Assembly: GCA_030603395.1 (NCBI GenBank)
Contig: JAUVXX010000001.1
Span: 29,822 to 93,821, forward strand
DNA from: a bacterium
Lineage (GTDB): Bacteria; Patescibacteriota; Minisyncoccia; Minisyncoccales; CG1-02-41-26
Length of the DNA stretch: 64,000 nucleotides
Direction of reading: 5' to 3'
Shown here: positions 37,567 to 56,857 of the stretch, in pieces
Numbering within the stretch: the first letter of the stretch is position 1
Layout: every line of letters begins with the position of its first letter
The notes under the pieces: generated by a model
Databases searched by the model: none
Told to the model about the DNA's origin: nothing
Seen by the model: only the letters and a program-made list of their open reading frames with translations
Position numbers and translations under genes: made by a program

Positions 37567-37615
37567 TTTTCAGTTGATTTTACGAACTTGTCTCCTGTCC
37601 CTTGTCTCCTGTCTC

Positions 37616-38902: not shown

Positions 38903-38905
38903 TTT

Positions 38906-40054: not shown

Positions 40055-40102
40055 TTTTCAGTTGATTTTACGAACTTGTCTCCTGTCCTTTGTCTCCTGT
40101 CT

Positions 40103-41011
40103 CTATTCGGTCCAATAGTACATCATTATTGAGAAGTCCACTAAATCTACGATACCATCAAAGTTGATATCTGCACAACGATTAGCAGGCCTGGTTTGTC
40201 CCCAGAAATAAAGGAGAATTGAAAAATCAATCAAATCGATTCTCCCATCAAAATTCAAATCCGCTCCTTGACAGACTAAGGCTCCGGGAGCCAAAACTAA
40301 AAAAGAAAGAGTTTGAGAAAATGGGCTTTGTTCTCCGTCTCCAAAGAGAGCTTTGGCTCTTGCTTTATGTTCCCTTTCTTCCAAGGATGCTGTATTTAAT
40401 TTATAAGCCCACTTTCCTTTTTCATCGGTAAAGGCTTCCTTTACTGTTTCTCTAGGGGAAGAAATAAATATATTAATCTGGCTTTCTGGAAATGCCTGAC
40501 CCAAAATATTAACTTTGTTTCCTCTCTCCACCTGAGTGGGAGTTAGAGAAATAGTAGGGGAAATAAAAATCCCAGATATAGTGGTAGTTCTCTCGGCTAA
40601 AATGCTAACAGTAAAACTTAAAGTAACTGATTTGCGACCTTTAGTATCTTCAGCCCAAATTCCAAAAGTATAAATTCCTCCCGGAATCCCAGTTAATTCT
40701 TTTTTAAATAAACCAGAGGACTTAGCAAGAAAAGTAGCAGTAACCACATCATTTCTTAAAATAGTTAAAAAGGCATTGGGGTAAGCCCTTCCTTTAAAGA
40801 CAATCTTTGCTGCTGGAGTTGGCACTACTGCTCCTCCTCCTCCTCCTCCTGTTGGAACAACCTCTTCTTCTTCCTCTTCTTCTTCCCCCGGAGCAACTTC
40901 CACTCTAGCACTTACCGAAATATCCACGGTTGGAGTTTGGCAATATCCTAAAACTGGAAAAAAAAGTAAAATTATTCCCGCTAATAAAATTATGAATCGT
41001 GTCTTCTGCAT
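40103..41011 (-). CDS. Secreted protein with a C-terminal dockerin-like duplicated calcium-binding motif
   Basis: It has a signal peptide, a poly-Glu/poly-Gly linker, and a C-terminal DLNFDGRIDLIDFSIL plus DINFDGIVDLVDFSIM, which looks like a type-I dockerin duplicated F-hand. Confidence 0.6.
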   Translation of the reverse strand: MQKTRFIILLAGIILLFFPVLGYCQTPTVDISVSARVEVAPGEEEEEEEEVVPTGGGGGGAVVPTPAAKIVFKGRAYPNAFLTILRNDVVTATFLAKSSGLFKKELTGIPGGIYTFGIWAEDTKGRKSVTLSFTVSILAERTTTISGIFISPTISLTPTQVERGNKVNILGQAFPESQINIFISSPRETVKEAFTDEKGKWAYKLNTASLEEREHKARAKALFGDGEQSPFSQTLSFLVLAPGALVCQGADLNFDGRIDLIDFSILLYFWGQTRPANRCADINFDGIVDLVDFSIMMYYWTE

Positions 41012-41082
41012 TTCTCTATTATATAAGAAAAATCATCCAATATAAACTGGATGACTTCTTGTCTCTTGTCTCCTGTCTCTTG

Positions 41083-42039
41083 TCACTGTCTCAATACTTT
41101 CTCTCCCCTAACCAAAACATTGAAAGCAGTCGCCCATCTCTTTCTACTTAAAATGAAAAATGCTATTACCGCCATTATCCCTACTCCAGCTTTCCAGGGA
41201 AAAGCCCAAAAGGTAATTACCCTTGGAACTAAAGAAGTGTTACTCAGTCCATAACTTCCAACCAGAGTAGCAGTGTATCTTCCCGCCCAAAGCCATTTTC
41301 TATCCCAGGAGGTTTCAATTTTTCTTACTGAATTTGGGAGAACATTTCTTTGGACAAACCCAACATCAGCCACTTTTTTTCCTAACCAATTAGTAATAAC
41401 TACAAAACCTTTTGGTTTAAGGTGAATTGTCCCTTTATTCTCAAATCTTATGGTGAAATTTATTGGACCATACTCGGAATAGTAGGGAGCAAAAAATTCT
41501 TTGACTATCAAATTTTCTTCAACTTCTCCTGCCACCGAAAGTAAAACCAGAGCACCCACTCTTCCAGCAACCCCAGCTCCCACAAATTCTCCTCCTACCA
41601 CGGCGGTGGTACCAGCTAAAATTGAGCCATAATGACCACCAGGTTCTGCGTTTTCTGGAACATTGATAGTAAATGTAACAAATTTTTGCTCTTTTGGTTC
41701 CAGGGTAAACTCCTCGGGTTCCATTTTTATCCATCTGGCAATGGAGTAAGTTTCTGTTTCTGCTGGTTCAAGTTTCACATGTCCTATCTCACCCATTACA
41801 GTAAAATCTTCTATTTCCATCTTTATTCCAATGGTAGCGTTACTTGGATTATAAACTTTAACTTGATTTGTAATTGCATCTCCGGGGTTAGCTGTCAATT
41901 CAAAAGTCAAGGGAGAAATTCCAACGCCAATTCCTTGAGCAAAAACTGAGTGGCAAAATATTATCCCTCCAATAGCTAAAATTGTAACGGGGATAAACCA
42001 TTTCATATCTTTATCGTTGCTGCTAACCCGTGCTATCAA
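41083..42039 (-). CDS. Surface protein with signal peptide and C-terminal TM anchor (DUF916/DUF3324-like architecture); paralog of 42849..43964
   Basis: It shares the motif FTINVPENAEPGGHYGSI with 42849..43964 (FTISVPENAEPGGHYSVM) and has a C-terminal TM segment. Confidence 0.5.
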   Translation of the reverse strand: MIARVSSNDKDMKWFIPVTILAIGGIIFCHSVFAQGIGVGISPLTFELTANPGDAITNQVKVYNPSNATIGIKMEIEDFTVMGEIGHVKLEPAETETYSIARWIKMEPEEFTLEPKEQKFVTFTINVPENAEPGGHYGSILAGTTAVVGGEFVGAGVAGRVGALVLLSVAGEVEENLIVKEFFAPYYSEYGPINFTIRFENKGTIHLKPKGFVVITNWLGKKVADVGFVQRNVLPNSVRKIETSWDRKWLWAGRYTATLVGSYGLSNTSLVPRVITFWAFPWKAGVGIMAVIAFFILSRKRWATAFNVLVRGEKVLRQ

Positions 42040-42662
42040 AAGCTTCCCGTTAAGGTTAAAGTAATAGTGTCGTAGTAAGTATCTGCTGGTGTGCTAGTGG
42101 CATGAATAGTTGCCTTTAATGTCAGGGTACCCTGATCAAATGCTGTTGCTGTACTAGAACTAGCAAAATTTTGGCTTGTCGTCGCTAACTGTCCTACACT
42201 ATCACCAACTACGTTATAAGGACTATAAATACTCATCCCGCCGGTAGTGGTAGTTCCCTGCGCACCATATCCCTCAGTTCCGGCTGTCAAAGGAGAAGTA
42301 GTTGTCGATATAATGAGATGTTCGGTAGTTGTACCCAAAAGTCCTCCAAGCACAGTATCACCCAGATCTTTTATAGTCAATGTGTACCCATTAGCTGCGT
42401 TGGTCTTTATGCTGAAATCATTAGTAGTAGCGTTAACACTGCCACTACTTAGTGTTCCAAAAACCATTGCTGTAGTTGATACATTTAACTCAATCGTTTG
42501 ACCAACAGTTGCTGAAACAGTTATAACAGAGGTCGTAGCAGCACTAACATAATCAACAGGAGCTACCTTTTCATGTATTCCTATCATTGCCACCATTACC
42601 AAAGCTAAACCAACTCCAATAGCTATAATTATATCGAGATTTCTTTTAATTTTTTTCGCCAT
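42036..42662 (-). CDS. Small Thr/Ser/Gly-rich beta-rich secreted protein (WxL-domain-like)
   Basis: It has a signal/TM N-terminus. Its C-terminus, TYYDTITLTLTGSF, resembles the C-terminus of the giant protein, TYNTTVYYVCTANY. Confidence 0.45.
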   Translation of the reverse strand: MAKKIKRNLDIIIAIGVGLALVMVAMIGIHEKVAPVDYVSAATTSVITVSATVGQTIELNVSTTAMVFGTLSSGSVNATTNDFSIKTNAANGYTLTIKDLGDTVLGGLLGTTTEHLIISTTTSPLTAGTEGYGAQGTTTTGGMSIYSPYNVVGDSVGQLATTSQNFASSSTATAFDQGTLTLKATIHATSTPADTYYDTITLTLTGSF

Positions 42663-42848
42663 TTCTTACTTTAAATTTTTAAATTAGAAATCTATTATCG
42701 ATCTTTGGATTATTTTACTTTACTATAAATTTATTTTACCACAAAACCCTCTATCAAGAGAAAAAAAGTTTTCTACAGGTTATTTTATTATAGCGTTTAA
42801 TTCCCCCTCCTAAGACTGTCAACTGTGGATAACTTTTAAACGTAGGAT

Positions 42849-43964
42849 TCATGGTTTATAATTCTTTTTAACCAAAACCCTTGTTGCTAATTTTATCCGT
42901 TTTCTATATTTTACTACAATAAACATAATTAAGCCAATACTTACCATAAATCCGAGCCAAAATTGCCAGGGGAAAGAGAAGAAAGTTAAAACAAATGGAA
43001 TATTTGGCTGGAGAATTCCTGCAACTACCGGACTTTTTGCTTCAAGTTCTAATCTGGCTTGATATTTTCCAAAAAAGAAATTTCTTGCCAAAAAATTAGC
43101 GATTGATTCTGGCAGCCATTTCAAATAGCTTGGGATTCCTGCTGAAAACTCAATTGGGAATTGGCGAATTTTTCCCGGTAGAATTGTCCTTTGGGGAATT
43201 TTTGCCTCTCCAACTTTCTTGCCAAAAATATTATAAATTAAAACTTTGCCGAATGGTTTGATATGGTAAATATCATTGTTTTTTATCCTCAGCAAAAATG
43301 AGGAGGGAGATTTTTTAGTTATAGTAACTTCATTAGCAGCTTGAACCACTCTTCCAATGAAGGCAGAAGCAAGATTTTCCAAGATAACTAATCTCTCTTC
43401 TTTTGGTACAGAAAATTCAATTACTTCTAACTTTTGTTCAACTTCCGGCTCTAGCATAAAGACTTTCACTGAAAATAAAAACAAAACCCCAATCACTGGA
43501 ATGGCCCGGGGCTGGTCTTCCTCGAAATAAAAAGATGGTAACTGAGGCTCAAAAAGCATAACAGAATAATGACCACCTGGTTCTGCGTTTTCTGGAACAG
43601 AAATTGTAAAATTAACTTTCTCTGTTTCGCCAGAATCCAAAATAAAATTCGGCTTCTCAATCCTGAACCACTTCCGAGAAGCAAAAGATGAATCTTGGGA
43701 AGATTCATCAAACAACATTTCCCCTGAATCTTCGGCTGCCGTGAAGTCAGTTATTCTCACCTCTATTGGAACTGCCACCTCACTCTTGTTTGTGAGATTA
43801 ATTTTTTCAGTTATTTCCTTTTCAGGGAAAACATCTATTTCAAAAATCTGAGGAGAGACAGAGAAACCAATAGATCCAATTTTTTGAGCATTTACTGAAA
43901 AAAGGGGGATTAAAAAACTTACAATAAAAACAGGTATAAAAAGTTTTAATAATTTGCTGTGCAT
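42849..43964 (-). CDS. Surface protein, paralog of 41083..42039
   Basis: See 41083..42039. It has a signal peptide and a C-terminal TM segment. Confidence 0.5.
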   Translation of the reverse strand: MHSKLLKLFIPVFIVSFLIPLFSVNAQKIGSIGFSVSPQIFEIDVFPEKEITEKINLTNKSEVAVPIEVRITDFTAAEDSGEMLFDESSQDSSFASRKWFRIEKPNFILDSGETEKVNFTISVPENAEPGGHYSVMLFEPQLPSFYFEEDQPRAIPVIGVLFLFSVKVFMLEPEVEQKLEVIEFSVPKEERLVILENLASAFIGRVVQAANEVTITKKSPSSFLLRIKNNDIYHIKPFGKVLIYNIFGKKVGEAKIPQRTILPGKIRQFPIEFSAGIPSYLKWLPESIANFLARNFFFGKYQARLELEAKSPVVAGILQPNIPFVLTFFSFPWQFWLGFMVSIGLIMFIVVKYRKRIKLATRVLVKKNYKP

Positions 43965-46900
43965 ACGTAATACACTGTTGTGTTATATGTCCCAGGTGCC
44001 TGGGTGACAGCGGTAGAAACTTTGTAAGTAATTGTATGCTCACTTCCACTTGGAACAGCAGAAGTTTCATCAGCCATTGAGTCACCGGGAGTGGAGGTAG
44101 CAAAACCGGCATATTTTGTTGAAGTGGCGAAACGATTATCATAGCCAGGACCAAGAGAATTATCATCGGTAGTATAACCAAATCCACATTCGCTGTTATT
44201 CATGCAATTACCTGACCAAAGAGCAGGGGTGGAGTTAGCATAAGGCCATCTATCAATATAATTTGTTTCATCAAGTTTTAACCTCCCATCATTACTGGCA
44301 TAGGCTTTAACGGTGTAGCCACCAGAATAAGAAGTGGTAGCATACAAGATTGTCGTTCCGGTGGCGGTAAAATCATTTCCACTATCCAATTGCCCTAAAT
44401 TAACTGATAAAGAATCAACTGAAAACTCTAAATCAGAAGTCATGCCAGCATACCAAGAACCATTAGTTGGAGGTTCATTAACGCTGGGGTAAGGAGTATT
44501 CATAGCGGAACTACTACTCCTAAACCAATCTATTGAAATACATTTATCTACTCCCGAGCTTTCCGTGCTTGAAACTGAAGTAATATACTTATTCCCTTGG
44601 TCATTATAATAATCATAATCGCTATAACCCAAAACCGTAAGTTGCAAATTGTATTTGTAATAAGTAGTTGTAGCGCTGTCTTCCGAATATTCTCTAATTC
44701 TGATGGCTCCGTCAGTTCCGGGTTGAGGAATGGTCCCGGTGGCAGTCCCAGTAGCATAGGTTACTGTAACTTGAGTGGTTGAGGCATCTCCCCAGGCACC
44801 TCCTGACCACTTCCAAATTGTGGCATCAGAAGTAGAAGTGCTATATATAGTTGTCGTAGCACCGGGGACATCAGTGGAAGTAGCGTTGGCATCCACCACA
44901 TGAGCTCCCAAATACCAATCAACATTCAAAACACCATTACTGCTAACATTCTTGTCGTTCAAAGTGGTGTTAATCACTGTGGTAGTTCCGTTAGTAAAGT
45001 TTGGCCAGTTCCAGGTTGACTCTTGGATATTACAAGTACCCAAACAAGCAAAACTCCAAGAAGAAGCCGCTCCTTCGCCAACAATAGTTTTATCAGTAGA
45101 GATTGTTTCCCCGCCTTTAACATTTAGAGTTCCCCCTGCATCAACGGTAGTCGTAGCATTTTGTTGAATGTAAACCTTACATTGTCGATTACTCCCCAAA
45201 GCGGTTCCATCAAAGTCCTTGGTATATTCCCAATAATCAGTGATGCCGGTTGCTGTATGGAAGTCGCCCCAGATATAAAGATAGCCATCATTGCTGGCAT
45301 GGTCTTGTGAATACAAAGAGCCGGAAGAATCTACATCATAGCTGGTGGAGGTGGAGTTCCACATTCTGATATCAGTGCTTGTTCCAATTTTTAAAGTAGC
45401 GTAGGTTTCAGCAGCTTGGGTTGTTGAACCAACAGTATAGGAGGAAGCACTGTTAAGATATAAGGTGGAGTTTGATTGCCAATCAGTAACTGAAGGGACA
45501 GAGGTTGAGATAACATAATTACCTTGAACTTCAATAGTAATGGAGGTAGTAGCGACAAAAGAGGTAGCGTTGGTTATGTTCCAATTACTGGTGGAAGTAG
45601 CATCAGCAATTATGGTCCAACCACCTGAAGCATTGTCAAAAGTAACAATGTTAAAAGGAGAGTTTCCTGGATTAATGGTTTCTCCGGTATCTGAAGAATC
45701 AAAAGTAACTGTTCCTGAAGGATGATTAAAGATTCCTCCTGACTCTACTAACCAAGAGCCGCCAACATGGAGGGTAATATCAGTGGAGGTTGCGGTTCCA
45801 TTGGTGATAGTGAAGTCATTGTCAATATAGGGGTCAGTTCCAGTGGCGAAACTCCAACCCCCTCCTGACCCATTGAAAGTAAGGTTGTATAAATGAGAAC
45901 TACCCAAAGTTATAGTGTGACCAGCGGAGGTAGCAAAGAGTTTTAAAGTTCCATTGTTGTGTTTGAAAGTTCCTCCAGAAACATCAAAGTCACCACCAAC
46001 AGCTAAAGTTCCGGTGGTGGAGGTTGCTGTGCCAGCGCTAATGGTGAAGTTGTTGGTAGTAGTGGCATCAGTATCTTGGAAAGTCCAGCCACCTCCAGAA
46101 CCATTAAAAGTTAAATCATAGAAATCCGAACCACCAGCCGTGATTGTTTTGCCAGTGGTGGTGGCATCAAAAGTAACGGTTCCTTGTTGGGCGCGGAAAG
46201 TGCCAGAGTTTGTCCAAGAACCTGCAACATTGATGTTGTAATTGGAGCTTGAAGCATCAAGGATAGAATCTGAACCAATAATTAATAAATCTCCAGAAAC
46301 TTTGGTTGAGGTAGCGAGAGTGGTGGTGGCAGTTGAAGATTTTTCAAAAGTAAGAGTGTAAAAATCATGGCTATTATCTATGCCACCAGAATTAATGGTG
46401 CTTGTTGTTGTTCCGTTAAAAGTGGTGGTTGAATTAGCAGCATCAAAAGTAGCTCCGGTATCTACGGTCCAATTAGTTCCCAAATTAATTAGAGTTGCGT
46501 TACCAGCCAAAGTATCTGAAGCATTAAGGGTACCATTGATGGTAATATATTCTGTAATATCTAAATCATAACCTCTGGTATTTAAGGTATCGCCATTTTG
46601 AACAGTTAAGCTATCAGCTGTCATATCTGAACTTAAATTAGTGGTAGCTGGTGAGTTTCCAATATGGACATTGCCCAAATTATTCTTGGTAGCATTATCA
46701 TCTTGAAAATAACCGATTCCACTTCCTTCAAATATTAAAAGACCACTACTAGTTGCTTTAGTGAAAGTGGTGCTTGAAGCAATGGTGAAGCTTCTTGTAA
46801 CAAAGTTGTTTGCTCCTTGGCTGAGAGTGCCTTGAGTGATAGTGGTGGTGGCTGAAGTTGTCGCTGCATCCTGGAAAGTCCATTCACCGCCTGAACCATT

Positions 46901-49900
46901 GAAAGTCAGGTTATAGAAGGAATTGCCAGCGGTGGTAATAGTTTTGCCAGTGGTGGTAGCGTTAAAAATAACTGTATTGCTACCAGCAGTAAAAGTAGCC
47001 GTTGAGGAAGCGGTCCAAGAACCAGCTAAAGTAATAGTGCCTCCAGCTGTCAGGGTAGCTTCTGTTCCAATCAGTAAATCACCATCTGGTGTAGAGCTGG
47101 CATTACCCTCCAAAGTAATGGTGCCCCCCGGTGAATAAGAGTCTCCCCCCCAAACAATTAGTTTCTTATAAGGATTTAAAACTAAATTATTGCTATTTGA
47201 AGTAAAGAAAATATCTGTTGGGTCATTATCTCCATCCCATTGACCCAAATCAGCATTAGAAATAGCCGTCCCATCTTCTTCTCTTACAATCAGCCGATTT
47301 TGATAAAGATCAATATCATCGGGGCTGCCGCTGTTGTAGCGAGTGACAGTTACTGCCTGCTCGCCTCCATTAGTATCCAAATAAACTGTCAAAACTTGTC
47401 CGGCTGAAGGTGGGTCAATTCCGGAAACCGTATAAGTGCCATCAGTATTAGCCGTATTGGAATTGTCACCTCCTCCATCAACTTTAACCCGGACTAATGG
47501 CTGGGAAGCCATAGCTGTGTCTCCCTCATTAGTATAAAGCGTACCCGAAACCGTGGTGCCAACGATGGGTGGCACCCAGGTTACTTTCCAATCATCAAGG
47601 GTTGGGGAACTGGTAGCAGAATCAATAGTTAACTCTGCTTTCAAACAAATACGATTGTAAGTAGAAGTACTAAGCCCTGAAATATTTTTAGGACTGGCAT
47701 TTACATCAAAACCAACATCGTTGCCTGGAAGAGTACTGGTGGGAACAAGGGTATCGCAAGCTATGGATAAGGTATAATATACTTTCAACTTTATATCAGA
47801 GCCCGAGGGCTCATTAGTTGACCAGTAAACTTCGCCCCAACTTTCTCGGTTCGGCACCCAATCAAAATCAACTTCAGTTGACATCACGGTTCCTGAATCC
47901 GCTCGGATGGTAGTGATTCCATCAATCTCTACCGGAAAGTCGCCACTAACTGAACCGCCATCAATAGTAACATCGTCAGAGGCATTAATTTTAATCTCAA
48001 TAGTATCGCCCCCATTAGCATTAGAGGTAACATCTAAAACTACATACATGCACATAGCAGTAGTACTTGAAATCTGTACTGCATCGGTAAAAGTAGAGGT
48101 CCCGTTTGGTCCGCTAAATGTACTAGTGGAGCCAAATTGAGTTTCATCCCCACTATAACTCAGACCAGCACAATTATAAGGAGAGCTGGTATCCAAATCA
48201 TACCAGAGCTCAATATTATCAAGACCGGTCTGGGCATTCACGCTTCCGTATTCAGTAATGGTAACCGCGGTCATCGTGGCATTGCCATCATCAGTAGTTG
48301 TAGCAGTAAACATTCCTCCGATATGCTTATCTGTGTCTCCTACATTTAGATTGGCAACCTGGTTTCCGCTAGCGCCAATTGTTATCTCAGGACCAACAAC
48401 TTGAACCGGCACAAGCTCAATCGCCGCAATGCTGTAACCATCGCTCACCGCCTGGCTCCAGTTAAGATTATAAGTGCCGGTGGTAGTAGCTACGAGCTCG
48501 CTACCGGCATAAGCGGTGTCGCTATAAGAGCTTGATCCTGACCGAAAGTCCCAGCGCTCTGTCTGGCCTGAAGTGGGTGCATGAGGATAGGTATCTCCTC
48601 CGTCTCCTGTCACTGCGTCAATAATCAACGAATCGGCGTAGGTAGTAGTAAAGCTAAAAGAGATGGAGATCGTGTTGTTGCCAGTCTGAGTGGAAGTGGC
48701 TCCGATAGGGGTAGTCTGGTCTACTCCGGTGTAGGAGATGGCGACGATACCACTGTTGTCCTGGCTTGAAAGGTTACAGGTTGCGGTATGAGTGCCTGAT
48801 GCGCCGACTAGATACCAAACCGACACCATGGCGCCATTCCCTGAGATGCTGGCGCCGTCGATATTGGTAAGACTTTGCGCGCCGAAAGTGACACTAGAAA
48901 CAGTCTGATTCTCTCCGTGACAGATAACCAAGAGTAATGTGTTGCTGCCTGAGACAGTGTGGTCAACACTAATACTGGTGTGTGTGGAAGAGTCAAAGTT
49001 AGTGCTGGCAGTTCCATCAATAACCGGAGCCGCCTGCGCCACTTTTACTTCCGGCGGTACAGATGGATTTTTCCAAATCTGGGGCCAGCCAGAAAACATC
49101 CAACCTGTCACTATCAACAGAATAAGCAGAAAAGTTATTATTTTTCGGCCCCCTTCCCTTTTCTTCTTTTTAACAAAATAGAAACTAGCGAAGATTACCG
49201 AAGTTCCTGCAATAAGAATAACTACGATAAGGAGATCAGTGGCCCAACCGATACCAGTAGTATCTTCCATTTGGCCGCTATCAGCTTTTTTATCAGCTCC
49301 AGGTCTCGCTCCTTCGTAAAGAGCTAAGACGTCTTCAGTTTCCTCCGAGCTTGAAGACTGGACAATATAATAGCCCTCGGCTGCGAATTCTATTTTTGAA
49401 TAATTTTCAGGGGCATTAAATTCTAAATAGAACTCGTCCCCCTTTTCTATCACCAGGTAATTATCATCTGAAAGCAAAAGCAAACTTTTATCAGCGTCAG
49501 AAATTGCAGAAAGTTCAACGATGTTTTGGTCCTCACCATCTACTCTCAGGAAAATCTTGTCAATATAAGCTCTTTCGTCCATCTCTTCTGTAATTTTGAG
49601 CTTGATTTTACCGTCAATAATTTCTGTTTTTCCAGTAATATCTATGAAGTCTGTGTATTCTTTTTCTGGTGAGGTTGCCCATGGGATAAAGTCTGAGAAC
49701 TTAATGTATTGATCATTTTGATAGACATAAAGAAATGGTGACCATCCTCCTAACTTTACTCCATCGGTGGTAGTCACGGTACTGGTAAGGGTGTCAGTAT
49801 TAAATTGAGCGCCAGTGGTCTGGAACCATTGAGCTACCTCAAGCGTGGAGGAGACACTAATACTTCGTTTGGTAGAATAAGATGACCAGATATTGGTTCC

Positions 49901-52900
49901 TCCAGGATCGCGCGCTTTTACTCGCCACCAATAAACTGTATCCTCGGATAAAGCATCACCGGCTTGAATAGTATAAGTAGTGGTGGCGCCTGAACTACTT
50001 GTAGCTGAACTCCAACCCGCATCTGTAGGATAATCGGCCTGACTTGAAGTAGCTGGTGAGCTGAAGTTGTAATCAATATCCCATTCAAGCCAAAATTCTA
50101 CCGGGTCGCCGTCAGGATCTGTGGCGGAAAAACCTCCCAAGTCCGGGGTGGTTGTGGAAGCTAACATATTGGGGAAAGCCGGGGTATCAGCAAGAATCGG
50201 AGTATTGGGATTTGTTAATTCTCCAGCAATGGTCACCTCAGGATATCTGTCACTGGTGTAAGTAAAGTGAGTGGTGGTGCCAGCATTGGTTAATCGGAAA
50301 CAATAGGTAGCACCATCTGTAGCTGTAGTTGAAGCTTCAATGGAAAATTCTGCTTCTAAGAACTCCGAAGTAGTTAGAGTAGTTGAGGCAATTTGGCTAG
50401 AGGTATCCTTTACTGCATTGTTATCTACTAAAAAGGTGGTGTTTTCATCAGATACTCCCCCAGTTGAAGTAGCAATGTTAGTAGTATCTGCTCCATCAGT
50501 TAAATAAGTAGAAGTTGACATATCCCAATCACCTTCTGCTGCTCCAACGTCAACCCAGGTGGAAATATCCGAACAAGAAGCCCCTGTTTTTTCTCCATAT
50601 TCCAGACGATATTGAACATCGGTAGAGGTAGCTGTTCCTTCATTAGAAATCTCAATCCTTAATCTGGTAGTGGTGGCTTTTTCTAGACCGGTCAGAGCTG
50701 TATCTTGATTACCATTAGTGGCTGAAGTAGCACTGGTAGCATAAGCTCCTGTAATAATATTTCTTTTTTCTATTCGCCATTGCCAATTCCCGGGTACAAC
50801 ATCCATACCTGTGATATAGATATAACCTGAATCAACGGTAACTGCCCGAACGTGATCATCACTATCGAACCCACTGCTGGGATCTACTTGAACCACTCCA
50901 TCCCCGTCAAAAGCACCAGCCACACAAGCATCGGTACTGGTACAGAGATTACCGGTAGTGATATTTCTTTTTTCTATTCGCCATTGATAATCACCAGCCG
51001 GATTAACGTTTTCATAGCCACCAAGATAAACGTAACCTGAGTCAACTTTAATCGAATAGGGAATATCATCATCAGTAGTTGGATCACTAGTTACTTCGCC
51101 GCTGGAACCAAAAGCACTCACTAAATTTCCATCTGATTTATTTCTTTTTTGGACTTTCCATCCCAGGTCCCCTCCAGCATAATCCCAACCAGAAATATAT
51201 AAGTAATTTGAATCAATAGCAATTGAGTGAGAACTTTCTGAACCACCACTGTCCCAATATTGAGTGATTATCCCATCCTCATCAAAAGCACCAGCAGCAC
51301 AGGTGCTGGTACTGTTACAGAGATCTCCTGTACTAATATTTCTTTTTTCTATCACCCATTGGCCGCCGTTGTTATTGTCCTTACCAGCAGCATAGAGATA
51401 ATTATCATCAACAGCAACTGTATAAAAAAGGTCTTCCCCACTAGTTGGATTTCTCTGAGCTACTCCTCCACTACCAAACTCACCAGCTGCACAAGCATCG
51501 GTGCTGGTACAGAGAGCTCCGGTATTGATATTCCTTTTCTCTATTCGCAACTGGTTATCTGTTTCAACACTATCCCAACCAACTATATAGACATAGTTTG
51601 AGTCAATTGTGATTCCATAAGATTGATCGCTACCACTGCTTGGATTGTTTGATGCTATTCCTCCACTACCAAACTCACCAGCAGCACAGGCGCCGGTACT
51701 GGTACAGAGAGCTCCTGTACTAATATTTCTTTTTTCTATTCGCCATTGGTTACCACCAGTCCCGTCTTTACCAGTAAGATAAATATAACTAGAATCAATA
51801 GCAAGGTTGTAAATCATATCACTGCCAGCACTTGGGTTGCTTGTTACTGTTCCTCCACTACCAAACTCACCAGCAGCACAGGCGCCGGTACTGGTACAGA
51901 GAGCTCCTGTACTAATATTTCTTTTTTCTATTCGCCATTGGTTACCGTTGGCAGTATCGTAGCCAGCAACATAAATATAATCCAAATCATCAGCTATGGC
52001 CCGAGCTCTATCATCGCCGCCGGTAGGATTTTTTTGGATTATTCCATCTTCATCAAAGGCAGTTTCCGCACCATCATCATTTCGCCAGTGATAATGGATT
52101 TGTTTAAGATCAGTGAAGGCATCAGAGGCAATCTGCCACTGCCGAATCTCTGAGAATATAGGATTTAGGATATAGGGATCTTGAAACTCTAGGGGACCTA
52201 ATAAATATAAATAGGGGCTTACATCTGGCGCATCAAAGGTGTAACGAAGCCCAATGAAATCATCTTTATTAAAGGTAGCTTCGCAATGGATTTCTTGAGC
52301 TTCTTCAGAATTTAGGGAATAGTAGTTAGAATTTAGGGATTCATTATTTATCCTATATTCTATATTCTGAATACTAAATCCTAGGGGTATTGTTTCAATA
52401 ATTTCTCCTGCAAAATCCTGGTTGGCTTTTATTTTCAAAGTCATCTCATAAGTTGCTGGTGGAAAGATTCTGGTTGGTCCTATTCTTTCTATATCAAAAA
52501 GAACGGAATCACGGACCTCAAAAGAATCCTCAATTTCATAACCGGTATCAAGGTTAGTCAATTTCATCTGATAAATGCCTACTTCCCCTGTCTGATAATA
52601 AGCAAAATAATCTGGTGTATCGGTTACATTATTCGGACCACACTCACCTGACTTTTGAACTTCAAGAGCGGTCACTTTGCCATCAGGTGCAGTAATTTCT
52701 AACTCTAAATTAGCATTACAAACGGTATGACCATCATCTCCTAATGCCGCCATCTGCAAGTATGCTTGCTCACCCGGCGAATAAATTGACTTACTGGTAT
52801 TAATAGCAAGAACTCCCCAGGTGAAATCTTGCTCAAATATTTGCAATCCAGCTAAATCCGCCAATTTATCTTCTATCTTTACAATAAGTTTATATAGACC

Positions 52901-55780
52901 CGGACGAAACTGTAAGGGCTTATTTATCGTTACTGAAAATTCTCCATTATCTTCAAAAGAAATCTCATAATCAATGTCTACTTTGCTCCCTTGGGATCCT
53001 TGAATCTCGGAGGTAATATTGATATCTTCCCAGGGAACAACAGAAGGCAAATTAGTGGAATTGCTTGAGGTAGAATCATTTCCAACCAAAGCCCCCAAAA
53101 CCCTGAAGGTTAAGTTACCGTTGGTTGAGGTAGTAGAAGTTGAGGAGGGAGTAGAGGTTGAGGTAGTGGAGGTTGAGGTAGTAGCGGTTGGGGTGCTTGA
53201 AGTTGAAGTTGAAGTAATGGTTGTCGTGCTAGATGAAGGAAAGCTAACGGAGGTCCGTCCTCCGTCACTTGTCGTGGTGGTGGTTAAAAATTTATTATAA
53301 ATTTTATTATATCGGAATCGAAACTTCGGCTCCTCATTTGCTCGAAAACTGTGTTTCTCAGACACCACTTCAATACCCTCTTTTTCGTCCTCTTTTTTCC
53401 TTTCTTCCCCTTCTTGCTCTTCTTCCTCTATAGTTTCTTCCTCCTCAATTTCCTCCTCTTCAAATTCTTCTTCTGTAGGTTCTTCTTCGAATTCCTCTTC
53501 TGGGAATTCTTCTGTCTCCCCTGATGTTTCTTCTGTTATTTCTTCTGGTGTTTCCTCTGAAAGAAATTCTTCGGGCTCTGTGAGCTCCTCGGTGGGTTGC
53601 TCTTGAGGCTGCTCCTGGGATTCTTCTTGGGGTTCTTCCTGAGGCTGTTCCTCCTCGGTTGCCTGTTCTTTATATGTAACTTCTACCCAGATGCTATCAA
53701 GATAAGCAGTAACATTCGTCTCACCACCAACCACTCCCTCAAATTTTATTTTTAGATTCTCAACATCATCCCAATTTTTCAAAAACGAGATATCGTACTC
53801 AAAATACCCACCACCTTGTCCTGAACTTGCCGAAGGATTCAAAGCATTAGATAAAGGATAACCAGAGATAGTATCTAATATCTGCCAGTTCTCACCGTCC
53901 AACGAATACCAAATAATAATTTTTGTATCAAGATTAGGCAGAGTTTCGCTGGTGCTGGTTGCAGTTGTAGAAGTGCCTTCTTCTGCCTTTACTATGAAGA
54001 CTATGTCAATTAACTGTTTAAGGTTGAATTTTAGATATGCTAATGCTTTCTTTGTTTTAACAACCAAAATTCCAAAGAAATTTTTAACTTTGCCCCATGG
54101 GGAGAAGTGAGTTGGCCCCTCTTCTAAAGAGAATGAAGAATCCGTAGATGTAGCCAATTGGTCATTGGTACCACTTGGGGTATTGGTTGCAGTATTATTT
54201 AAATTTTCAATGGGCAATTCGGCATTAGTAGAGGTAGTAGAAGTACTACTAACTTGCTCAGGAGGATTAACTTGCTCAATAGTAATGTTCACTGTAGCTT
54301 CATTGCTTTCTGCTTTGCCATCCGATGCTTTGAAAGTAAAACTATCTTCGCCATAATAATTTTCATTTGGGCTATATGTTACCTCGGGAAGATTATCGGC
54401 AACTAAAGTTCCATTTTCTGGTTCAGACAAAATAGAATAGCTTAGTGAATTTCCATCAGTATCTGTGGCATTTAAAGTAATGGTAGTTGAAGTATTTTCA
54501 TTTAAGGTTATGTTTTGATCAAAAGCTTGAGGTGGGTGATTTGGTTCAGAAACTTCAATGGTTGTAGTGGCTTCAGTTTCTAATTCACCTCTTTCAACTT
54601 TTACTTCAGCTTCATATATATTAGGTTCTTCGAAATTGCAAAGACCAGAAACAATGTAATTCTCTTCAGTAGTGGTGGCTATTATATCCCAGTCCTCTCC
54701 CAAGCCACAGTTGAAATAATAGGTAACGGTACCAGTGGCAGTTCCAATAGTATTGACAACTAAGTCAACATTATTTAAAGGAGCTTGACCGGAATTGGGC
54801 TCAGCTGTCAAATTAACTGAAATAGTAGTGGTCGTGGGAATTGTTGTGGTTGTAGTAGTTGAAGGTGGCGATGGTGATAAATCAAAATCAGGAATTTTCT
54901 CCCCGATAGCGAAAGAAAATTTAATTTTAGCAGATTGAAATTGCTTTTGGTCGAAATTAGTAGGAGAAATCACCTGGAAATCTTCAGCTACAAGAACTAA
55001 AGAGCCACTTTCATAAACTGCCGAGTTTGTTTCAGAAAACGAATCTAGACCTCCCAGAGGCCCGGCCTCTGGTGGTCCTTGGACATTTTGAGGATTTCGC
55101 CAATCACCGGTAGAAAGGGTGGTATAAAAATTGATTGTCTTTATTTCTTGGGCAAAGATGGCTTCAATTGAGTTTTGTAAAAATTTTGCTGGAGCAAATC
55201 CTGAAACTAAAAGGAAGGTGACAAAAGCAGTTAGACCTAATCGCCAGCCAAAACCAAAAAGCTTATTTCTCCCTTGAGGAATAATTAGATTAAGATAAGG
55301 AGAGAAGTTAGAGGATGTCTCTTTCTGACTTTGAATCTTTGCTTCTTGATATTTTTTTATCGCTTCTTCCGTCGTCACCCAAGAAATTCCAGAATAAATT
55401 TTCCTTCCCTTTATCTTCCCTTTTCTAATTAAATAACCAATGTAGTCAGAAGTATAGCCAGAAATCTCTGCTACTTCTTTTAATAAGAGGTATTTTCTTT
55501 TTACTAAATGAGAATTCCGAACGTCGGAATTCTTGGCTCTTTTACAATATTTAATTACTTCTTCTGGGGTGGTTTGCCAAGAGATATTAGCGAAAATCTT
55601 TTTCCCTTTAATCTTTCCTTGGCGAATCAAATAGCCAACATAATCAGGAGAATAGCCTGAGATTTCTGCTGCTTTTTTAAGAGAGATAAATTGTTTTTCT
55701 CTTGGTTTCATAGAATCTCGAGGGTCGAGATTATTTACTTTTAAGAATTCTAACATTATAACATAGTTTAAAGCCCTCAA
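43946..55780 (-). CDS. Giant surface protein (3,944 aa)
   Basis: It is an uninterrupted 11.8 kb ORF with several parts. Two N-terminal HTH_17-like domains precede a TM segment. Poly-Thr linkers and an acidic EEQPQEEPQE region follow. Then come seven repeats of about 64 aa of the form WRIEKRNISTGALCTSTGACAAGEFGSGG, which may be beta-propeller-like. An internal TM-KKKKR-TM hairpin comes next. After it there are about six repeats of roughly 90 aa of the form YNLTFNGSGGGWTFQD...GTVTFDATTTGKTIT, which may be beta-helix-like. The protein ends in a WxL-like C-terminus. Confidence 0.7.
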   Translation of the reverse strand: MRALNYVIMLEFLKVNNLDPRDSMKPREKQFISLKKAAEISGYSPDYVGYLIRQGKIKGKKIFANISWQTTPEEVIKYCKRAKNSDVRNSHLVKRKYLLLKEVAEISGYTSDYIGYLIRKGKIKGRKIYSGISWVTTEEAIKKYQEAKIQSQKETSSNFSPYLNLIIPQGRNKLFGFGWRLGLTAFVTFLLVSGFAPAKFLQNSIEAIFAQEIKTINFYTTLSTGDWRNPQNVQGPPEAGPLGGLDSFSETNSAVYESGSLVLVAEDFQVISPTNFDQKQFQSAKIKFSFAIGEKIPDFDLSPSPPSTTTTTTIPTTTTISVNLTAEPNSGQAPLNNVDLVVNTIGTATGTVTYYFNCGLGEDWDIIATTTEENYIVSGLCNFEEPNIYEAEVKVERGELETEATTTIEVSEPNHPPQAFDQNITLNENTSTTITLNATDTDGNSLSYSILSEPENGTLVADNLPEVTYSPNENYYGEDSFTFKASDGKAESNEATVNITIEQVNPPEQVSSTSTTSTNAELPIENLNNTATNTPSGTNDQLATSTDSSFSLEEGPTHFSPWGKVKNFFGILVVKTKKALAYLKFNLKQLIDIVFIVKAEEGTSTTATSTSETLPNLDTKIIIWYSLDGENWQILDTISGYPLSNALNPSASSGQGGGYFEYDISFLKNWDDVENLKIKFEGVVGGETNVTAYLDSIWVEVTYKEQATEEEQPQEEPQEESQEQPQEQPTEELTEPEEFLSEETPEEITEETSGETEEFPEEEFEEEPTEEEFEEEEIEEEETIEEEEQEGEERKKEDEKEGIEVVSEKHSFRANEEPKFRFRYNKIYNKFLTTTTTSDGGRTSVSFPSSSTTTITSTSTSSTPTATTSTSTTSTSTPSSTSTTSTNGNLTFRVLGALVGNDSTSSNSTNLPSVVPWEDINITSEIQGSQGSKVDIDYEISFEDNGEFSVTINKPLQFRPGLYKLIVKIEDKLADLAGLQIFEQDFTWGVLAINTSKSIYSPGEQAYLQMAALGDDGHTVCNANLELEITAPDGKVTALEVQKSGECGPNNVTDTPDYFAYYQTGEVGIYQMKLTNLDTGYEIEDSFEVRDSVLFDIERIGPTRIFPPATYEMTLKIKANQDFAGEIIETIPLGFSIQNIEYRINNESLNSNYYSLNSEEAQEIHCEATFNKDDFIGLRYTFDAPDVSPYLYLLGPLEFQDPYILNPIFSEIRQWQIASDAFTDLKQIHYHWRNDDGAETAFDEDGIIQKNPTGGDDRARAIADDLDYIYVAGYDTANGNQWRIEKRNISTGALCTSTGACAAGEFGSGGTVTSNPSAGSDMIYNLAIDSSYIYLTGKDGTGGNQWRIEKRNISTGALCTSTGACAAGEFGSGGIASNNPSSGSDQSYGITIDSNYVYIVGWDSVETDNQLRIEKRNINTGALCTSTDACAAGEFGSGGVAQRNPTSGEDLFYTVAVDDNYLYAAGKDNNNGGQWVIEKRNISTGDLCNSTSTCAAGAFDEDGIITQYWDSGGSESSHSIAIDSNYLYISGWDYAGGDLGWKVQKRNKSDGNLVSAFGSSGEVTSDPTTDDDIPYSIKVDSGYVYLGGYENVNPAGDYQWRIEKRNITTGNLCTSTDACVAGAFDGDGVVQVDPSSGFDSDDHVRAVTVDSGYIYITGMDVVPGNWQWRIEKRNIITGAYATSATSATNGNQDTALTGLEKATTTRLRIEISNEGTATSTDVQYRLEYGEKTGASCSDISTWVDVGAAEGDWDMSTSTYLTDGADTTNIATSTGGVSDENTTFLVDNNAVKDTSSQIASTTLTTSEFLEAEFSIEASTTATDGATYCFRLTNAGTTTHFTYTSDRYPEVTIAGELTNPNTPILADTPAFPNMLASTTTPDLGGFSATDPDGDPVEFWLEWDIDYNFSSPATSSQADYPTDAGWSSATSSSGATTTYTIQAGDALSEDTVYWWRVKARDPGGTNIWSSYSTKRSISVSSTLEVAQWFQTTGAQFNTDTLTSTVTTTDGVKLGGWSPFLYVYQNDQYIKFSDFIPWATSPEKEYTDFIDITGKTEIIDGKIKLKITEEMDERAYIDKIFLRVDGEDQNIVELSAISDADKSLLLLSDDNYLVIEKGDEFYLEFNAPENYSKIEFAAEGYYIVQSSSSEETEDVLALYEGARPGADKKADSGQMEDTTGIGWATDLLIVVILIAGTSVIFASFYFVKKKKREGGRKIITFLLILLIVTGWMFSGWPQIWKNPSVPPEVKVAQAAPVIDGTASTNFDSSTHTSISVDHTVSGSNTLLLVICHGENQTVSSVTFGAQSLTNIDGASISGNGAMVSVWYLVGASGTHTATCNLSSQDNSGIVAISYTGVDQTTPIGATSTQTGNNTISISFSFTTTYADSLIIDAVTGDGGDTYPHAPTSGQTERWDFRSGSSSYSDTAYAGSELVATTTGTYNLNWSQAVSDGYSIAAIELVPVQVVGPEITIGASGNQVANLNVGDTDKHIGGMFTATTTDDGNATMTAVTITEYGSVNAQTGLDNIELWYDLDTSSPYNCAGLSYSGDETQFGSTSTFSGPNGTSTFTDAVQISSTTAMCMYVVLDVTSNANGGDTIEIKINASDDVTIDGGSVSGDFPVEIDGITTIRADSGTVMSTEVDFDWVPNRESWGEVYWSTNEPSGSDIKLKVYYTLSIACDTLVPTSTLPGNDVGFDVNASPKNISGLSTSTYNRICLKAELTIDSATSSPTLDDWKVTWVPPIVGTTVSGTLYTNEGDTAMASQPLVRVKVDGGGDNSNTANTDGTYTVSGIDPPSAGQVLTVYLDTNGGEQAVTVTRYNSGSPDDIDLYQNRLIVREEDGTAISNADLGQWDGDNDPTDIFFTSNSNNLVLNPYKKLIVWGGDSYSPGGTITLEGNASSTPDGDLLIGTEATLTAGGTITLAGSWTASSTATFTAGSNTVIFNATTTGKTITTAGNSFYNLTFNGSGGEWTFQDAATTSATTTITQGTLSQGANNFVTRSFTIASSTTFTKATSSGLLIFEGSGIGYFQDDNATKNNLGNVHIGNSPATTNLSSDMTADSLTVQNGDTLNTRGYDLDITEYITINGTLNASDTLAGNATLINLGTNWTVDTGATFDAANSTTTFNGTTTSTINSGGIDNSHDFYTLTFEKSSTATTTLATSTKVSGDLLIIGSDSILDASSSNYNINVAGSWTNSGTFRAQQGTVTFDATTTGKTITAGGSDFYDLTFNGSGGGWTFQDTDATTTNNFTISAGTATSTTGTLAVGGDFDVSGGTFKHNNGTLKLFATSAGHTITLGSSHLYNLTFNGSGGGWSFATGTDPYIDNDFTITNGTATSTDITLHVGGSWLVESGGIFNHPSGTVTFDSSDTGETINPGNSPFNIVTFDNASGGWTIIADATSTSNWNITNATSFVATTSITIEVQGNYVISTSVPSVTDWQSNSTLYLNSASSYTVGSTTQAAETYATLKIGTSTDIRMWNSTSTSYDVDSSGSLYSQDHASNDGYLYIWGDFHTATGITDYWEYTKDFDGTALGSNRQCKVYIQQNATTTVDAGGTLNVKGGETISTDKTIVGEGAASSWSFACLGTCNIQESTWNWPNFTNGTTTVINTTLNDKNVSSNGVLNVDWYLGAHVVDANATSTDVPGATTTIYSTSTSDATIWKWSGGAWGDASTTQVTVTYATGTATGTIPQPGTDGAIRIREYSEDSATTTYYKYNLQLTVLGYSDYDYYNDQGNKYITSVSSTESSGVDKCISIDWFRSSSSAMNTPYPSVNEPPTNGSWYAGMTSDLEFSVDSLSVNLGQLDSGNDFTATGTTILYATTSYSGGYTVKAYASNDGRLKLDETNYIDRWPYANSTPALWSGNCMNNSECGFGYTTDDNSLGPGYDNRFATSTKYAGFATSTPGDSMADETSAVPSGSEHTITYKVSTAVTQAPGTYNTTVYYVCTANY
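50700..52100 (-). repeat. Tandem repeats of about 192 nt inside the giant gene, with near-identical copies
   Basis: The string atatttcttttttctattcgccattg recurs at about 50757, 50957, 51341, 51530, 51722 and 51915, and the copies at 51722 and 51915 sit in nearly identical flanking sequence. Confidence 0.75.
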
Positions 55781-55857
55781 GTCAATAGTCCAACTGTGGA
55801 AAACTTTTATTCTCCAGGGTTAGATATCCCCCTCCCAAACTTGTCTAAACAAAAATA

Positions 55858-55876
55858 CAGAGACCGGGTCTCTGTC
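55858..55876 (-). terminator. Stem-loop acagagaccgggtctctgt, followed by a T-run on the minus strand
   Basis: It is a palindrome. On the minus strand it is followed by atttttgttt. Confidence 0.45.
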
Positions 55877-56063: not shown

Positions 56064-56110
56064 ACTACTCTTGTGATAAATAAATTTTATTTGTTCTATT
56101 AAATTAAATC

Positions 56111-56857
56111 TTATTTGCTAAAAAGGTGAAGGAAATTTCTACCAAATTTCTTAAGATTCTGGATGTCTTGAGCAACATCACGTTTAAGTTCATCGGTGAT
56201 ATTAATAAGGGACTCTTTAATTTTCTCTCCCCCTTCCCAGATTTGCTCATTAATCTGTCCCACGAAACTAAGGACAATTCCCGGATTAAAAGTTTTAACT
56301 ACTTGCTCTGTACCCTTTGAAATATTTCCAGAAATTTCTTTTATAAGTTGAGAAGCTGAATTTCCGAGAACTTCTGCTCCTTGGAAGATATCTTGGGAGA
56401 TATTTTTTCCGACATCGGTTGCAAGTCCTCCAATATCGGTCGCGCCATTTTTAATATCGCTGGCAATTACTTTTGTTCTCACAGCAATAAAATTACCAAC
56501 TCCCTTGATTGCTGGCTCAAAATAAGGATAGGCAAAAAGAGTACTGATAGAAGCCAAAATAAAAACCAGGGCACAAACAATAGCAATCCGTTTGGCTCTA
56601 TACAATGATTGGTCAGAAGTAACCTCTTTTATTTTTATTTTTATTTTTTCTTTTTTTCTATCGGATAGCCGATTTTTGAAATTTTTTACTCTTTGCAGAT
56701 ACTCATCAATCCATTCTTTTTTAGTCATCCAATTTCTGGCGACTTTTAGTGCCCGCAATTTTCCCTGTCTTGCTCGCAAGCTTAAATACTCCTGGGAATA
56801 ACCAGAATATTTTGCTGCTTCATTCAAGGAAATATAATTTGATGTATCCTTTACCAT
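56111..56857 (-). CDS. Membrane protein with an N-terminal HTH_17-like domain followed by a TM segment
   Basis: The N-terminus, ISLNEAAKYSGYSQEYLSLRARQGKLRALKVARNWMTKKEWIDEY, matches the giant protein's N-terminal domains. It is followed by the TM segment IAIVCALVFILASISTLFAY. Confidence 0.5.
   Translation of the reverse strand: MVKDTSNYISLNEAAKYSGYSQEYLSLRARQGKLRALKVARNWMTKKEWIDEYLQRVKNFKNRLSDRKKEKIKIKIKEVTSDQSLYRAKRIAIVCALVFILASISTLFAYPYFEPAIKGVGNFIAVRTKVIASDIKNGATDIGGLATDVGKNISQDIFQGAEVLGNSASQLIKEISGNISKGTEQVVKTFNPGIVLSFVGQINEQIWEGGEKIKESLINITDELKRDVAQDIQNLKKFGRNFLHLFSK

Follow-up and report, generated by a model that had tools for sequence, protein, structure and literature searches.

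A giant Patescibacteria surface protein with an internal transmembrane hairpin that resembles a gene-joining scar

A giant gene with an internal membrane hairpin

The stretch of DNA analysed here, hereafter the window, comprises 64,000 nucleotides (nt) of a Patescibacteriota genome (Minisyncoccales; assembly GCA_030603395.1, contig JAUVXX010000001.1, positions 29,822 to 93,821) that is AT-rich, with 39% GC. Its (−) strand, on which all window features described below lie, carries at 43946..55780 an open reading frame (ORF) of 3,944 codons that runs from TTG 55780 without a single stop down to 43946-43948. The product of this giant gene is a mosaic surface protein with three transmembrane (TM) helices, two of which form a hairpin far inside the chain. 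We consider it likely that the ORF represents one real gene, from a surface-protein cluster of a Paceibacteria/Nealsonbacteria-like member of the Patescibacteria, and that the hairpin is a fusion scar.

An earlier note on this DNA had described a giant protein of 3,944 amino acids (aa) that may be two fused genes. The frame is indeed open from the TTG; the likelier protein, of ~3,921 aa, is encoded at 43946..55711. In an alignment, the N-termini of homologues (MGAKKEQFISLKK, MKVNRDKK..) start 7-10 residues ahead of the first (F/Y)ISLK motif, which makes ATG 55711 (M24, counting from the TTG) the likeliest start. The other in-frame start is ATG 55756 (M9), where the public gene call (NCBI; P0049, 3,936 aa, 100% identical to the giant) begins.

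A Kyte-Doolittle scan over 19 residues finds exactly three membrane-type segments in the giant. TM1 (residues 174-201, 55178..55261), identified by hydropathy and alignment, is a predicted signal-anchor conserved in the family of its N-terminal module. The hairpin, encoded at 49076..49234, follows ~1,980 residues later; the earlier note had these DNA coordinates right and the distance, ~2,250 residues after TM1, wrong. It consists of TM2 (residues 2183-2203, 49172..49234), a stop-transfer helix of the C-terminal-anchor type by hydropathy and by comparison with the neighbouring proteins, the predicted cytoplasmic loop KKKKREGGRK (residues 2204-2213, 49142..49171), and TM3 (residues 2214-2235, 49076..49141), homologous to the h-region of the N-terminal leader of free-standing genes. 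The leader tail WKNPSVPPEVKV, then AQA (A2248-A2250), follows at 49031..49075, as identified in the alignment of leaders. The loop is strongly positive, at a net +6, and the segment ahead of TM2 is acidic.

The loop codons read GTT AAA AAG AAG AAA AGG GAA GGG GGC CGA AAA ATA ATA. The absence of an in-frame ATG for the second half had been pointed out before and extends to GTG and TTG: none of the three occurs between TM2 and TM3, and the next canonical starts lie within TM3. A purine run in the loop, AGGGAAGGGGG, was considered as a ribosome-binding site for a restart and rejected, since a Shine-Dalgarno-like motif is found in 0 of the 34 window genes. A scan for promoters and terminators at the junction gave nothing above chance.

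Beyond TM3 the ORF stays open for 1,710 codons (5.1 kb), in a gene where off-frame stops fall every ~10-19 codons, which argues that the second half is under selection and translated. Lacking a canonical start codon of its own, this half is probably translated together with the first as one fusion.

Anchor and leader signatures in the hairpin

The side of the hairpin that comes first in the chain has the character of a protein end. Neighbouring surface proteins finish in a TM helix and a Lys/Arg tail, and the likeness of TM2 and its Lys block to their C-terminal anchors, suspected from the start, thereby holds. Ahead of TM2 lies a domain that we call SPFLY (residues 2011-2152, 49325..49750), found by homologue searches and not present in the local Pfam copy, with the consensus SPFLYxYxN..Y..SDFI..A.S.EKEYT.F.DIT....I.DGK.KLKITEE.DE..Y.DR.YL..DG ... 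EF.AEGYYI. It occurs in proteins of both Patescibacteria and DPANN archaea (Diapherotrites, Woesearchaeota), in up to three copies per protein and often just before a TM anchor (P0003-5, P0050, P0052 and P0061-P0070; handles in P denote proteins, those in L loci). P0004 and P0005 finish with it, and in P0003 it lies close to the end. Cases from an exhaustive HMMER search, classified by context, place SPFLY at or near the C-terminus 19 times and inside a protein without TM another 19; in 8, the giant included, one or more TM segments come after it.

The other side has the character of a protein start. TM3 belongs to a family of leaders composed of a Lys/Arg n-region, an h-region, the motif W.FSGWPQIW.NP..PP and (A/V)xA, immediately after which the mature protein starts. 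Members lie at window 49031-49141, in L001 (from 2237), L003 (from 6171), L005 (from 5258) and L006 (from 7484), and in P0117, P0161 and P0146; the family has no match in Pfam or NCBIfam and was not found described in the literature searched. TM3 with the W.FSGWPQIW.NP..PP..AxA sequence heads free-standing genes in at least five distinct loci, two of them in syntenic clusters, and the GWMFSGWPQ helix stands ~2-65 codons from the preceding stop in L001, L003, L005/L009, L006 and L010-L014. One example is P0001 (876 aa), which starts MSRSKKNKGVK-FGATFLVLAVWLFSGYPPIW and is 73.5% identical to giant residues 2227-2464. It resides in L001, in the syntenic order WxL-like small protein, WxLIP-like TM-anchored protein, P0001, dockerin gene and cohesin genes. 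In L006, a syntenic cluster with the same kinds of gene, a gene ends in a TM helix and RRKKQVSKG-stop, 44 nt on a gene starts with MLRLNLWKNKAIKTSRFLLVFVLITGWMFSGWPQ, and dockerin and cohesin genes come next. In L003 the leader heads a gene adjoining T2SSE/T2SSF and pilin-like genes.

The DNA of the leaders aligns around a conserved GGTTGGATGTTTTCTGGCTGGCC core. Start codons of relatives that appear to align with the giant's loop lie in low-complexity sequence, and we discarded this alignment as unreliable.

The giant is not the only protein in which anchor and leader meet. P0071 (1,244 aa) has the order FN3, WTQT, SPFLY, TM, KGKLKKIGRR, TM, a further domain, a DYTWV domain and a C-terminal domain. 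Its N-terminal signal peptide and first domain are 57% identical (E = 3e-80) to its own stretch of loop, TM3 and next domain, so that its TM3 is demonstrably a copy of a signal peptide. This internal paralogy and the free-standing leaders bear out the proposal that the second helix looks like an N-terminal signal. P0071 comes from a gene cluster of the same type, in which a 201-aa neighbour is paralogous to its C-terminal domain and the other neighbours are a WxLIP-like protein with a TM anchor, a dockerin gene and two cohesin genes. In P0146 a GT2 glycosyltransferase is joined via TM-RRKRRFVMS-TM(WILASWPPIWKNPRIPPKIPEARA) to the module. The giant proteins P0061, P0063, P0068 and P0070 follow the succession SPFLY, TM, K-rich loop, signal-like TM and new ectodomain; P0063 is annotated as Candidatus Diapherotrites (DPANN). 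P0052, annotated as Candidatus Woesearchaeota (DPANN), has SPFLY and then several TM helices. Of the ~220-aa module that follows the leader in the giant (48377..49030), 64 cases are N-terminal, 54 lie inside a protein without TM and 3 come after two TM helices.

In recurring outside the giant, the junction behaves as a shuffled cassette would. These comparisons show that the hairpin is, at the level of sequence, a joining scar between a C-terminal anchor and an N-terminal leader. It would have arisen when a 3' end (SPFLY, C-terminal TM anchor, Lys/Arg tail) was joined in frame to a 5' end (n-region, h-region, leader, AxA, module). A homologue search with residues 2000-2520 returned no protein spanning the hairpin, and scans of genomes and metagenomes with the junction returned leaders and distant modules only, with no further hairpin-bearing orthologue.

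An error of sequencing or assembly, or a frameshift of very recent date, would give the same picture if there were two genes and a one-base indel in the homopolymer-rich loop (A5, A4, G3, G5, A5) hid the stop of the first. The +1 frame over the loop does read KRRKGKGAEK and then the double stop TAATAA (49135-49140), a typical Lys/Arg tail with its stop, and double stops in that frame number 10 per 3,944 codons; free-standing relatives start at TM3, and the giant comes from one contig. However, 47% of 12-codon windows in the +1 frame hold a stop by chance, the halves share one frame, and the second gene would be left with neither a canonical start before its hydrophobic core nor an n-region. 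P0071 carries the same junction, continuous, on an independent contig whose name (k141) suggests a short-read (MEGAHIT) assembly, and several other proteins have it as well. Such independent recurrence of continuous ORFs argues against a one-off artefact, which we regard as very unlikely.

The two halves might also be made separately from the continuous ORF, by internal initiation at a non-canonical codon, ATA ATA (49136-49141), or by a programmed frameshift on the A-rich run that would end the first half. An in-frame TTG four codons past TM2 in the hairpin of P0071 (L017 6120-6300) would give MKKIGRRTLIVIV.. (MKKIGRRTLIV..), a perfect signal peptide of the textbook kind, and the second half of P0071 could thus be made on its own as well; the loop of P0146 contains a Met, and the giant has both an A AAG-type run and the +1-frame stop. 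Against this, the giant's loop is free of ATG, GTG and TTG, and ATA starts, very rare in bacteria, would leave no positively charged n-region. The genome shows no Shine-Dalgarno usage to mark a restart, and no structure or signal was detected at the junction. For the giant we find separate synthesis highly improbable, and retain the single fused chain.

That chain may nevertheless be cut. Each of the 8 leaders in the alignment has (A/V)xA, ~15 residues past the hydrophobic core and with an invariant Ala at −1; in the giant the putative signal-peptidase site is A2248-Q-A2250↓A2251-P (49031-49039). The earlier note rightly saw the signal origin of the second helix and overlooked this conserved site behind TM3. 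As in a polyprotein, a hydrophobic segment inside the chain, homologous to genuine N-terminal signal peptides, is combined with a conserved small-x-small site. Signal peptidase cleavage at AQA↓A is plausible, though somewhat less likely than not, and would yield two products, a membrane protein with three TM helices and a free ectoprotein of 1,694 aa. A cleaved second product would have the new N-terminus APVIDGTASTNF..; an uncleaved chain would be continuous through ..FVKKKKREGGRKIITF.. and ..VKVAQAAPVIDG...

Origin of the junction

Base composition sets apart the region that follows TM3. The GC content at third codon positions (GC3) averages 0.327 over the giant gene (standard deviation 0.085, 50-codon windows) and reaches 0.5-0.64 at codons ~2230-2470 (window 48370-49090); all ten of the highest GC3 windows lie at codons 2300-2339. 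This island, which contains the ~220-aa module, is 76% identical at the nt level to L001 (GC 0.50), with the similarity beginning inside TM3. The module behind TM3 is thus compositionally foreign and laterally imported, recombined at the conserved leader.

Only one syntenic orthologue covers both halves of the giant. This locus, L007 (ENA ERZ25039515 contig_41181, 538 kb), aligns in order with giant residues 9-280, 612-712, 949-1223, 1925-1993, 2629-2972 and 3598-3944, and the orthologue of the downstream WxLIP gene comes next. It is ridden with frameshifts that resemble long-read errors, and its continuity is inferred. The earlier note had proposed to ask whether orthologues are split at the hairpin; L007, which has both halves, is neither split there nor hairpin-bearing.

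An alternative to the fusion of neighbours is that the ancestor was an L007-like giant with a single TM helix, and that a block of SPFLY, anchor, leader and module dropped into the linker between FN3/WFQTT and DFDWV. L007 runs from residues 1925-1993 straight into a distant module and then into the homologue of residue 2629, with no TM. The flanks WFQT.. and DFDWV.. bracket differing inserts in P0001, P0146 and P0071, as well as in L007, and the boundary of the GC3 island falls inside TM3. As the hairpin puts the chain back outside, it would be topologically tolerated in such a linker. The insertion, however, requires two in-frame junctions and an already fused donor, SPFLY and TM2 are not compositionally foreign, and one in-frame deletion from a fused form could equally give L007, whose sequence is moreover full of frameshifts. 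On balance we judge cassette insertion somewhat unlikely.

Given the GC3 island and an L007 without the hairpin, the data fit neighbour fusion and cassette recombination alike: either two genes fused and L007 later lost SPFLY and the hairpin, or a cassette entered an already giant gene. The joining itself would have come about by stop loss between neighbours in the first case or by recombination of a cassette into the giant in the second. Of the earlier proposal that two ancestral genes fused, the joining of genes thus stands; a fusion of neighbours by itself looks too simple an account, in view of L007, the foreign module and the recurring junction. Fusion and a three-TM protein had also been opposed to each other as two readings of the ORF. 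Both are supported, the one as its history and the other as its present state.

Several results weigh against a genuine single gene with a fusion scar. The exact giant gene is known from one contig only, of 205 kb. L007 lacks SPFLY, has only a distant module and shows no hydrophobic segment in any forward frame between TM1 and the homologue of residue 2629; unless it was deleted in L007, the hairpin cannot be ancestral to all orthologues. The distance of (A/V)xA from the hydrophobic core is far for the c-region of a canonical signal peptidase I substrate. At the N-terminus, the HTH_17 score in the giant itself falls under the Pfam threshold, and Foldseek matches to the whole N-terminal model are not significant (E >0.07). 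With these points counted, the single fused gene keeps the likelihood given at the outset.

Domains, gene cluster and known systems

Ahead of TM1 lie two HTH_17-like winged helices of the helix-turn-helix (HTH) class, at residues 31-80 (55541..55690) and 97-150 (55331..55492). A direct count on the translation gives 30 identical positions out of 50 (60%) between the units of ~50 aa (residues 31-80 against 97-146). Pfam HTH_17 matches the giant with E = 4.5e-5 and 24.1 bits, just below the 27-bit cut-off, the match falling on the second unit; several to many homologues of the module carry precomputed PF12728 matches. AlphaFold2, run on the N-terminal alignment, predicts two beta-alpha-alpha-hairpin-alpha units (E-H-H-EE-H), both with a pLDDT (predicted local distance difference test) >90. 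Their closest local superpositions in Foldseek are with Pukovnik Xis (4j2n) and BldC (6ama), with a root-mean-square deviation (rmsd) of 1.0-1.7 over 34-35 residues and a probability of 0.69-0.80; TraN (4p0y) and MerR-family matches are far poorer (rmsd ~20, probability <0.2). The HTH_17-type identity of both units, as predicted from sequence and model, is reasonably supported, in agreement with the cytoplasmic HTH_17/excisionase-type domains before a TM helix that the earlier note had described.

No signal peptide precedes the HTH pair, residues 24-173 contain ~21% Lys and Arg, and Arg/Lys flank TM1 on its N-side. A search with residues 24-295 retrieved 38 proteins, nearly all on short Patescibacteria contigs, the top match (63% identity) being named Candidatus Nealsonbacteria. 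The module of HTH, HTH, TM and WQNPQN is kept in 16 aligned homologues of these 38, most of them 44-64% identical, with the consensus WQNPQNVQGxPxVGPxGDxNSFSExNSAxY after TM1; in the giant the conserved juxtamembrane motif W(Q/R)NPQNVQGxP..GP.G...SFSE.NSA.Y is located at 54995..55105. Shorter relatives consist of one HTH and TM (~150 aa) or of two HTHs and TM (330-370 aa).

From TM1 on, the first ectodomain contains a Big_9/cadherin-like immunoglobulin (Ig) domain (residues 414-502, 54275..54541; Pfam, 64.5 bits), a compositionally acidic, Glu-rich low-complexity stretch (residues 699-821, 53318..53686) and an MG2-like domain under the Pfam cut-off (residues 995-1089, 52514..52798). Seven ~64-aa repeats with the motif W.IEKRN follow at 50741..52108: a motif scan finds seven W[RVK][IV][EQ]KRN at intervals of 59-68 aa, and the Cys pair in 5 of the 7. 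Seven repeats had been reported before, and that number holds; the Cys pair, described as conserved, is not in all of them. The summed score of these repeats for Pfam PilA4 (PF18682), 33.2 bits against a cut-off of 26.8, is made up of many weak partial matches around a Cys-x5-Cys loop. As sequence matches go, they do not fit the beta-propeller label once given to the repeats. An FN3-like unit ending WFQTTGAQFNTDT...VKLGG (49751..50212), common to L007, P0001, P0071 and P0146, leads to SPFLY.

In the second ectodomain, the module is followed by a "DFDWV...LDDWKVTW" domain (47471..47896), common to the same four, and by repeats of the type ..TFNGSGGxWTF.. (residues 2936-3447, 45440..46975). Repeat analysis resolves the latter into six to seven units of ~78-90 aa, in line with the previous count of about six of ~90 aa. 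The C-terminal domain, ending ..TVYYVCTANY (43949..44458), is conserved in 11 fragments and L007, and distantly resembles a neighbouring 208-aa protein; a search of the PDB with its profile gave nothing, and its AlphaFold2 model (pLDDT 40.6) is unusable.

Searched as a whole and in 8 sub-regions against Pfam and NCBIfam, the giant matched only Big_9/cadherin, plus weakly MG2, HTH_17 and PilA4, with zero matches for SPFLY, the 220-aa module, the DFDWV domain, the 80-90-aa repeats or the C-terminal domain. A sequence search of the PDB with the whole giant returned nothing, and an architecture of HTH_17, TM and giant ectodomain was not found described in the literature searched.

Downstream, a 371-aa gene (42849..43964) overlaps the end of the giant by 19 nt. 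It encodes a signal peptide, a WxLIP_PGBD-like Ig domain (22.2 bits, sub-threshold) and a C-terminal TM helix with Lys/Arg tail, and has an orthologue in L007. The rest of the surface cluster (35881..42662) continues 3' on the same strand with the 208-aa secreted protein (42036-42662), one domain of which resembles the giant's C-terminus, a second Ig-like WxLIP_PGBD protein (41083-42039, 318 aa; 37.9 bits against a cut-off of 27.3) with signal peptide, C-terminal TM helix and Lys/Arg tail, a dockerin protein, and three cohesin-like proteins that are TM-anchored, all with a TM helix and Lys/Arg tail at the C-terminus. For the C-terminal WxL domain (Pfam PF13731) no Pfam match at E <= 1 was obtained with the giant's C-terminus, the 208-aa neighbour or their L001 and L006 counterparts. 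A WxL-like nature of the giant's C-terminus, suggested by sequence patterns, is unsupported by Pfam, by the PDB profile search or by the AlphaFold2 model.

In front of each of the three tandem cohesin-like genes (35881-40079) stand practically identical 25 nt (acaagttcgtaaaatcaactgaaaa), with one base different in the copy before 37616-38902. They encode the ..QVRKIN-stop with which the preceding copy ends, and remnants of them stand in the intergenic DNA before the first and last copies, which points to recent tandem duplication. In L001, a WxLIP-like protein (896-2131) continues after its C-terminal TM helix with a Lys/Arg stretch and a LysM domain; this peptidoglycan-binding module would lie on the cytoplasmic side, unless the topology differs.

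Upstream of the giant, a 248-aa gene (56111..56857) encodes an HTH_17-like domain, a K-rich linker, a TM helix and ~140 aa outside. L007 and L008 have small divergent HTH_17/MerR genes (74-91 aa) at this position. Between the upstream gene and the giant lie two near-identical terminator-like hairpins (ACAGAGnCCCGGnCTCTGT and a T-run; 55857-55875 and 56044-56064), 188 nt apart, and between these a 22-nt AT-rich tandem direct repeat (55967-56009). This region could be an operator or attenuator; Rfam had no match in the intergenic region upstream of the giant. Elsewhere in the window, 24781-26652 encodes a 623-aa, extremely Glu/Lys/Arg-rich coiled-coil-like protein with a single C-terminal TM helix, and shows a strong GC skew.

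By hydropathy and the positive-inside rule, the giant would insert with its N-terminus inside, so that the two winged helices stay cytoplasmic. TM1 would act as signal-anchor and export the first ectodomain of ~1,980 aa (Ig/cadherin-like, MG2-like, 64-aa repeats, FN3-like, SPFLY); TM2 would stop transfer and keep the +6 loop inside; TM3 would restart export, of a second ectodomain of ~1,710 aa (220-aa module, DFDWV, 80-90-aa repeats, C-terminal domain). Judging from its Ig/cadherin-like, MG2-like, repeat-rich and Thr/Ser-rich ectodomains and from its cohesin/dockerin/WxLIP neighbourhood, we infer that the giant may be an adhesin or scaffold of a surface complex of that type. Regulation or tethering of DNA by the cytoplasmic HTH pair is speculation by analogy.

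A wider proposal is that the giant is a polyprotein linking contact to DNA. The HTH pair, held by TM1 to an adhesive ectodomain of ~2,000 aa, would signal host contact to the chromosome, either in the manner of ToxR or once released, Notch-like, through intramembrane proteolysis; a 1,694-aa tip adhesin, released at AQA↓A, would dock via its C-terminal domain on the neighbouring TM-anchored WxLIP/Pam-like Ig proteins; and the cassettes would be general in the Candidate Phyla Radiation (CPR) and DPANN. We regard this combination as unlikely. If true, cassettes of TM, loop and leader would be a general way for CPR and DPANN to combine surface proteins in a single translation unit. As episymbionts, Patescibacteria and DPANN archaea are attached to host cells, and how they build, export and regulate giant surface proteins is almost unknown. 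The tandem HTH_17-TM-WQNPQN module suggests that surface proteins connect directly to DNA in organisms that possess hardly any classical regulators. A recurrent in-frame junction of anchor and leader would account for odd internal TM hairpins in giant proteins, and serves as a warning for annotation, as such hairpins may mark former gene boundaries and possible cleavage sites.

Polyproteins cut at internal signal peptides are known: fbcH of Bradyrhizobium japonicum is a cytochrome b / c1 polyprotein, and flavivirus-type polyproteins are processed by signal peptidase. The giant resembles them in that one ORF encodes two membrane or exported parts, with an internal signal-like segment that would re-initiate export and a small-x-small site. 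It differs in its adhesin-like giant ectodomains, in a site ~15 residues from the core and in a cleavage that is only predicted. With ToxR, CadC and TcpP, one-component regulators bound to the membrane, it shares a cytoplasmic N-terminal (putative) DNA-binding domain, a TM helix and an extracytoplasmic domain, a layout that would lead directly from surface to DNA. However, its tandem HTH_17 domains (MerR/Xis/BldC-type) are not OmpR-type winged helices, and its ectodomain is ~100x larger; as Pfam finds HTH_17-type similarity only and no OmpR/PhoB-type effector domain in the giant, it is an analogue of ToxR/CadC and not a member. TraN of pIP501, with two per chain, and BldC, Xis/MerR-like HTH_17 DNA binders of tandem or multimerising type, are built of the same kind of small beta-alpha-alpha-wing-alpha units, but they are soluble whereas the giant is membrane-anchored, and the structural matches are weak.

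The gene cluster recalls the WxL/Csc clusters of Firmicutes, with TM-anchored WxLIP (DUF916) Ig-like proteins, small secreted proteins and a large protein sharing a C-terminal domain. It departs from them in having no Pfam WxL match at E <= 1 and in its additional cohesin and dockerin genes. In the Pam pilus of CPR, which is reported chiefly for Saccharimonadia and Microgenomatia, the two-domain PapD-like chaperones PamC/D have a C-terminal TM helix, and donor-strand exchange assembles the Ig-like pilins (bioRxiv 10.64898/2026.03.03.709456); the WxLIP-like proteins at window 41083-43964, together with the 208-aa secreted protein, recall these chaperones and pilins by layout alone (Ig-like domain and C-terminal TM helix in the WxLIP-like proteins). 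The giant multi-TM proteins of Omnitrophota are >10,000-30,000 aa long and have SecA-like as well as peptidase domains (bioRxiv 10.1101/2023.11.21.568195). Those domains were not found in the window giant, which alone has the HTH N-terminus. Common to both are a very large size, mostly extracellular domains of adhesion type, several TM helices, suspected processing and an origin in ultra-small bacteria.

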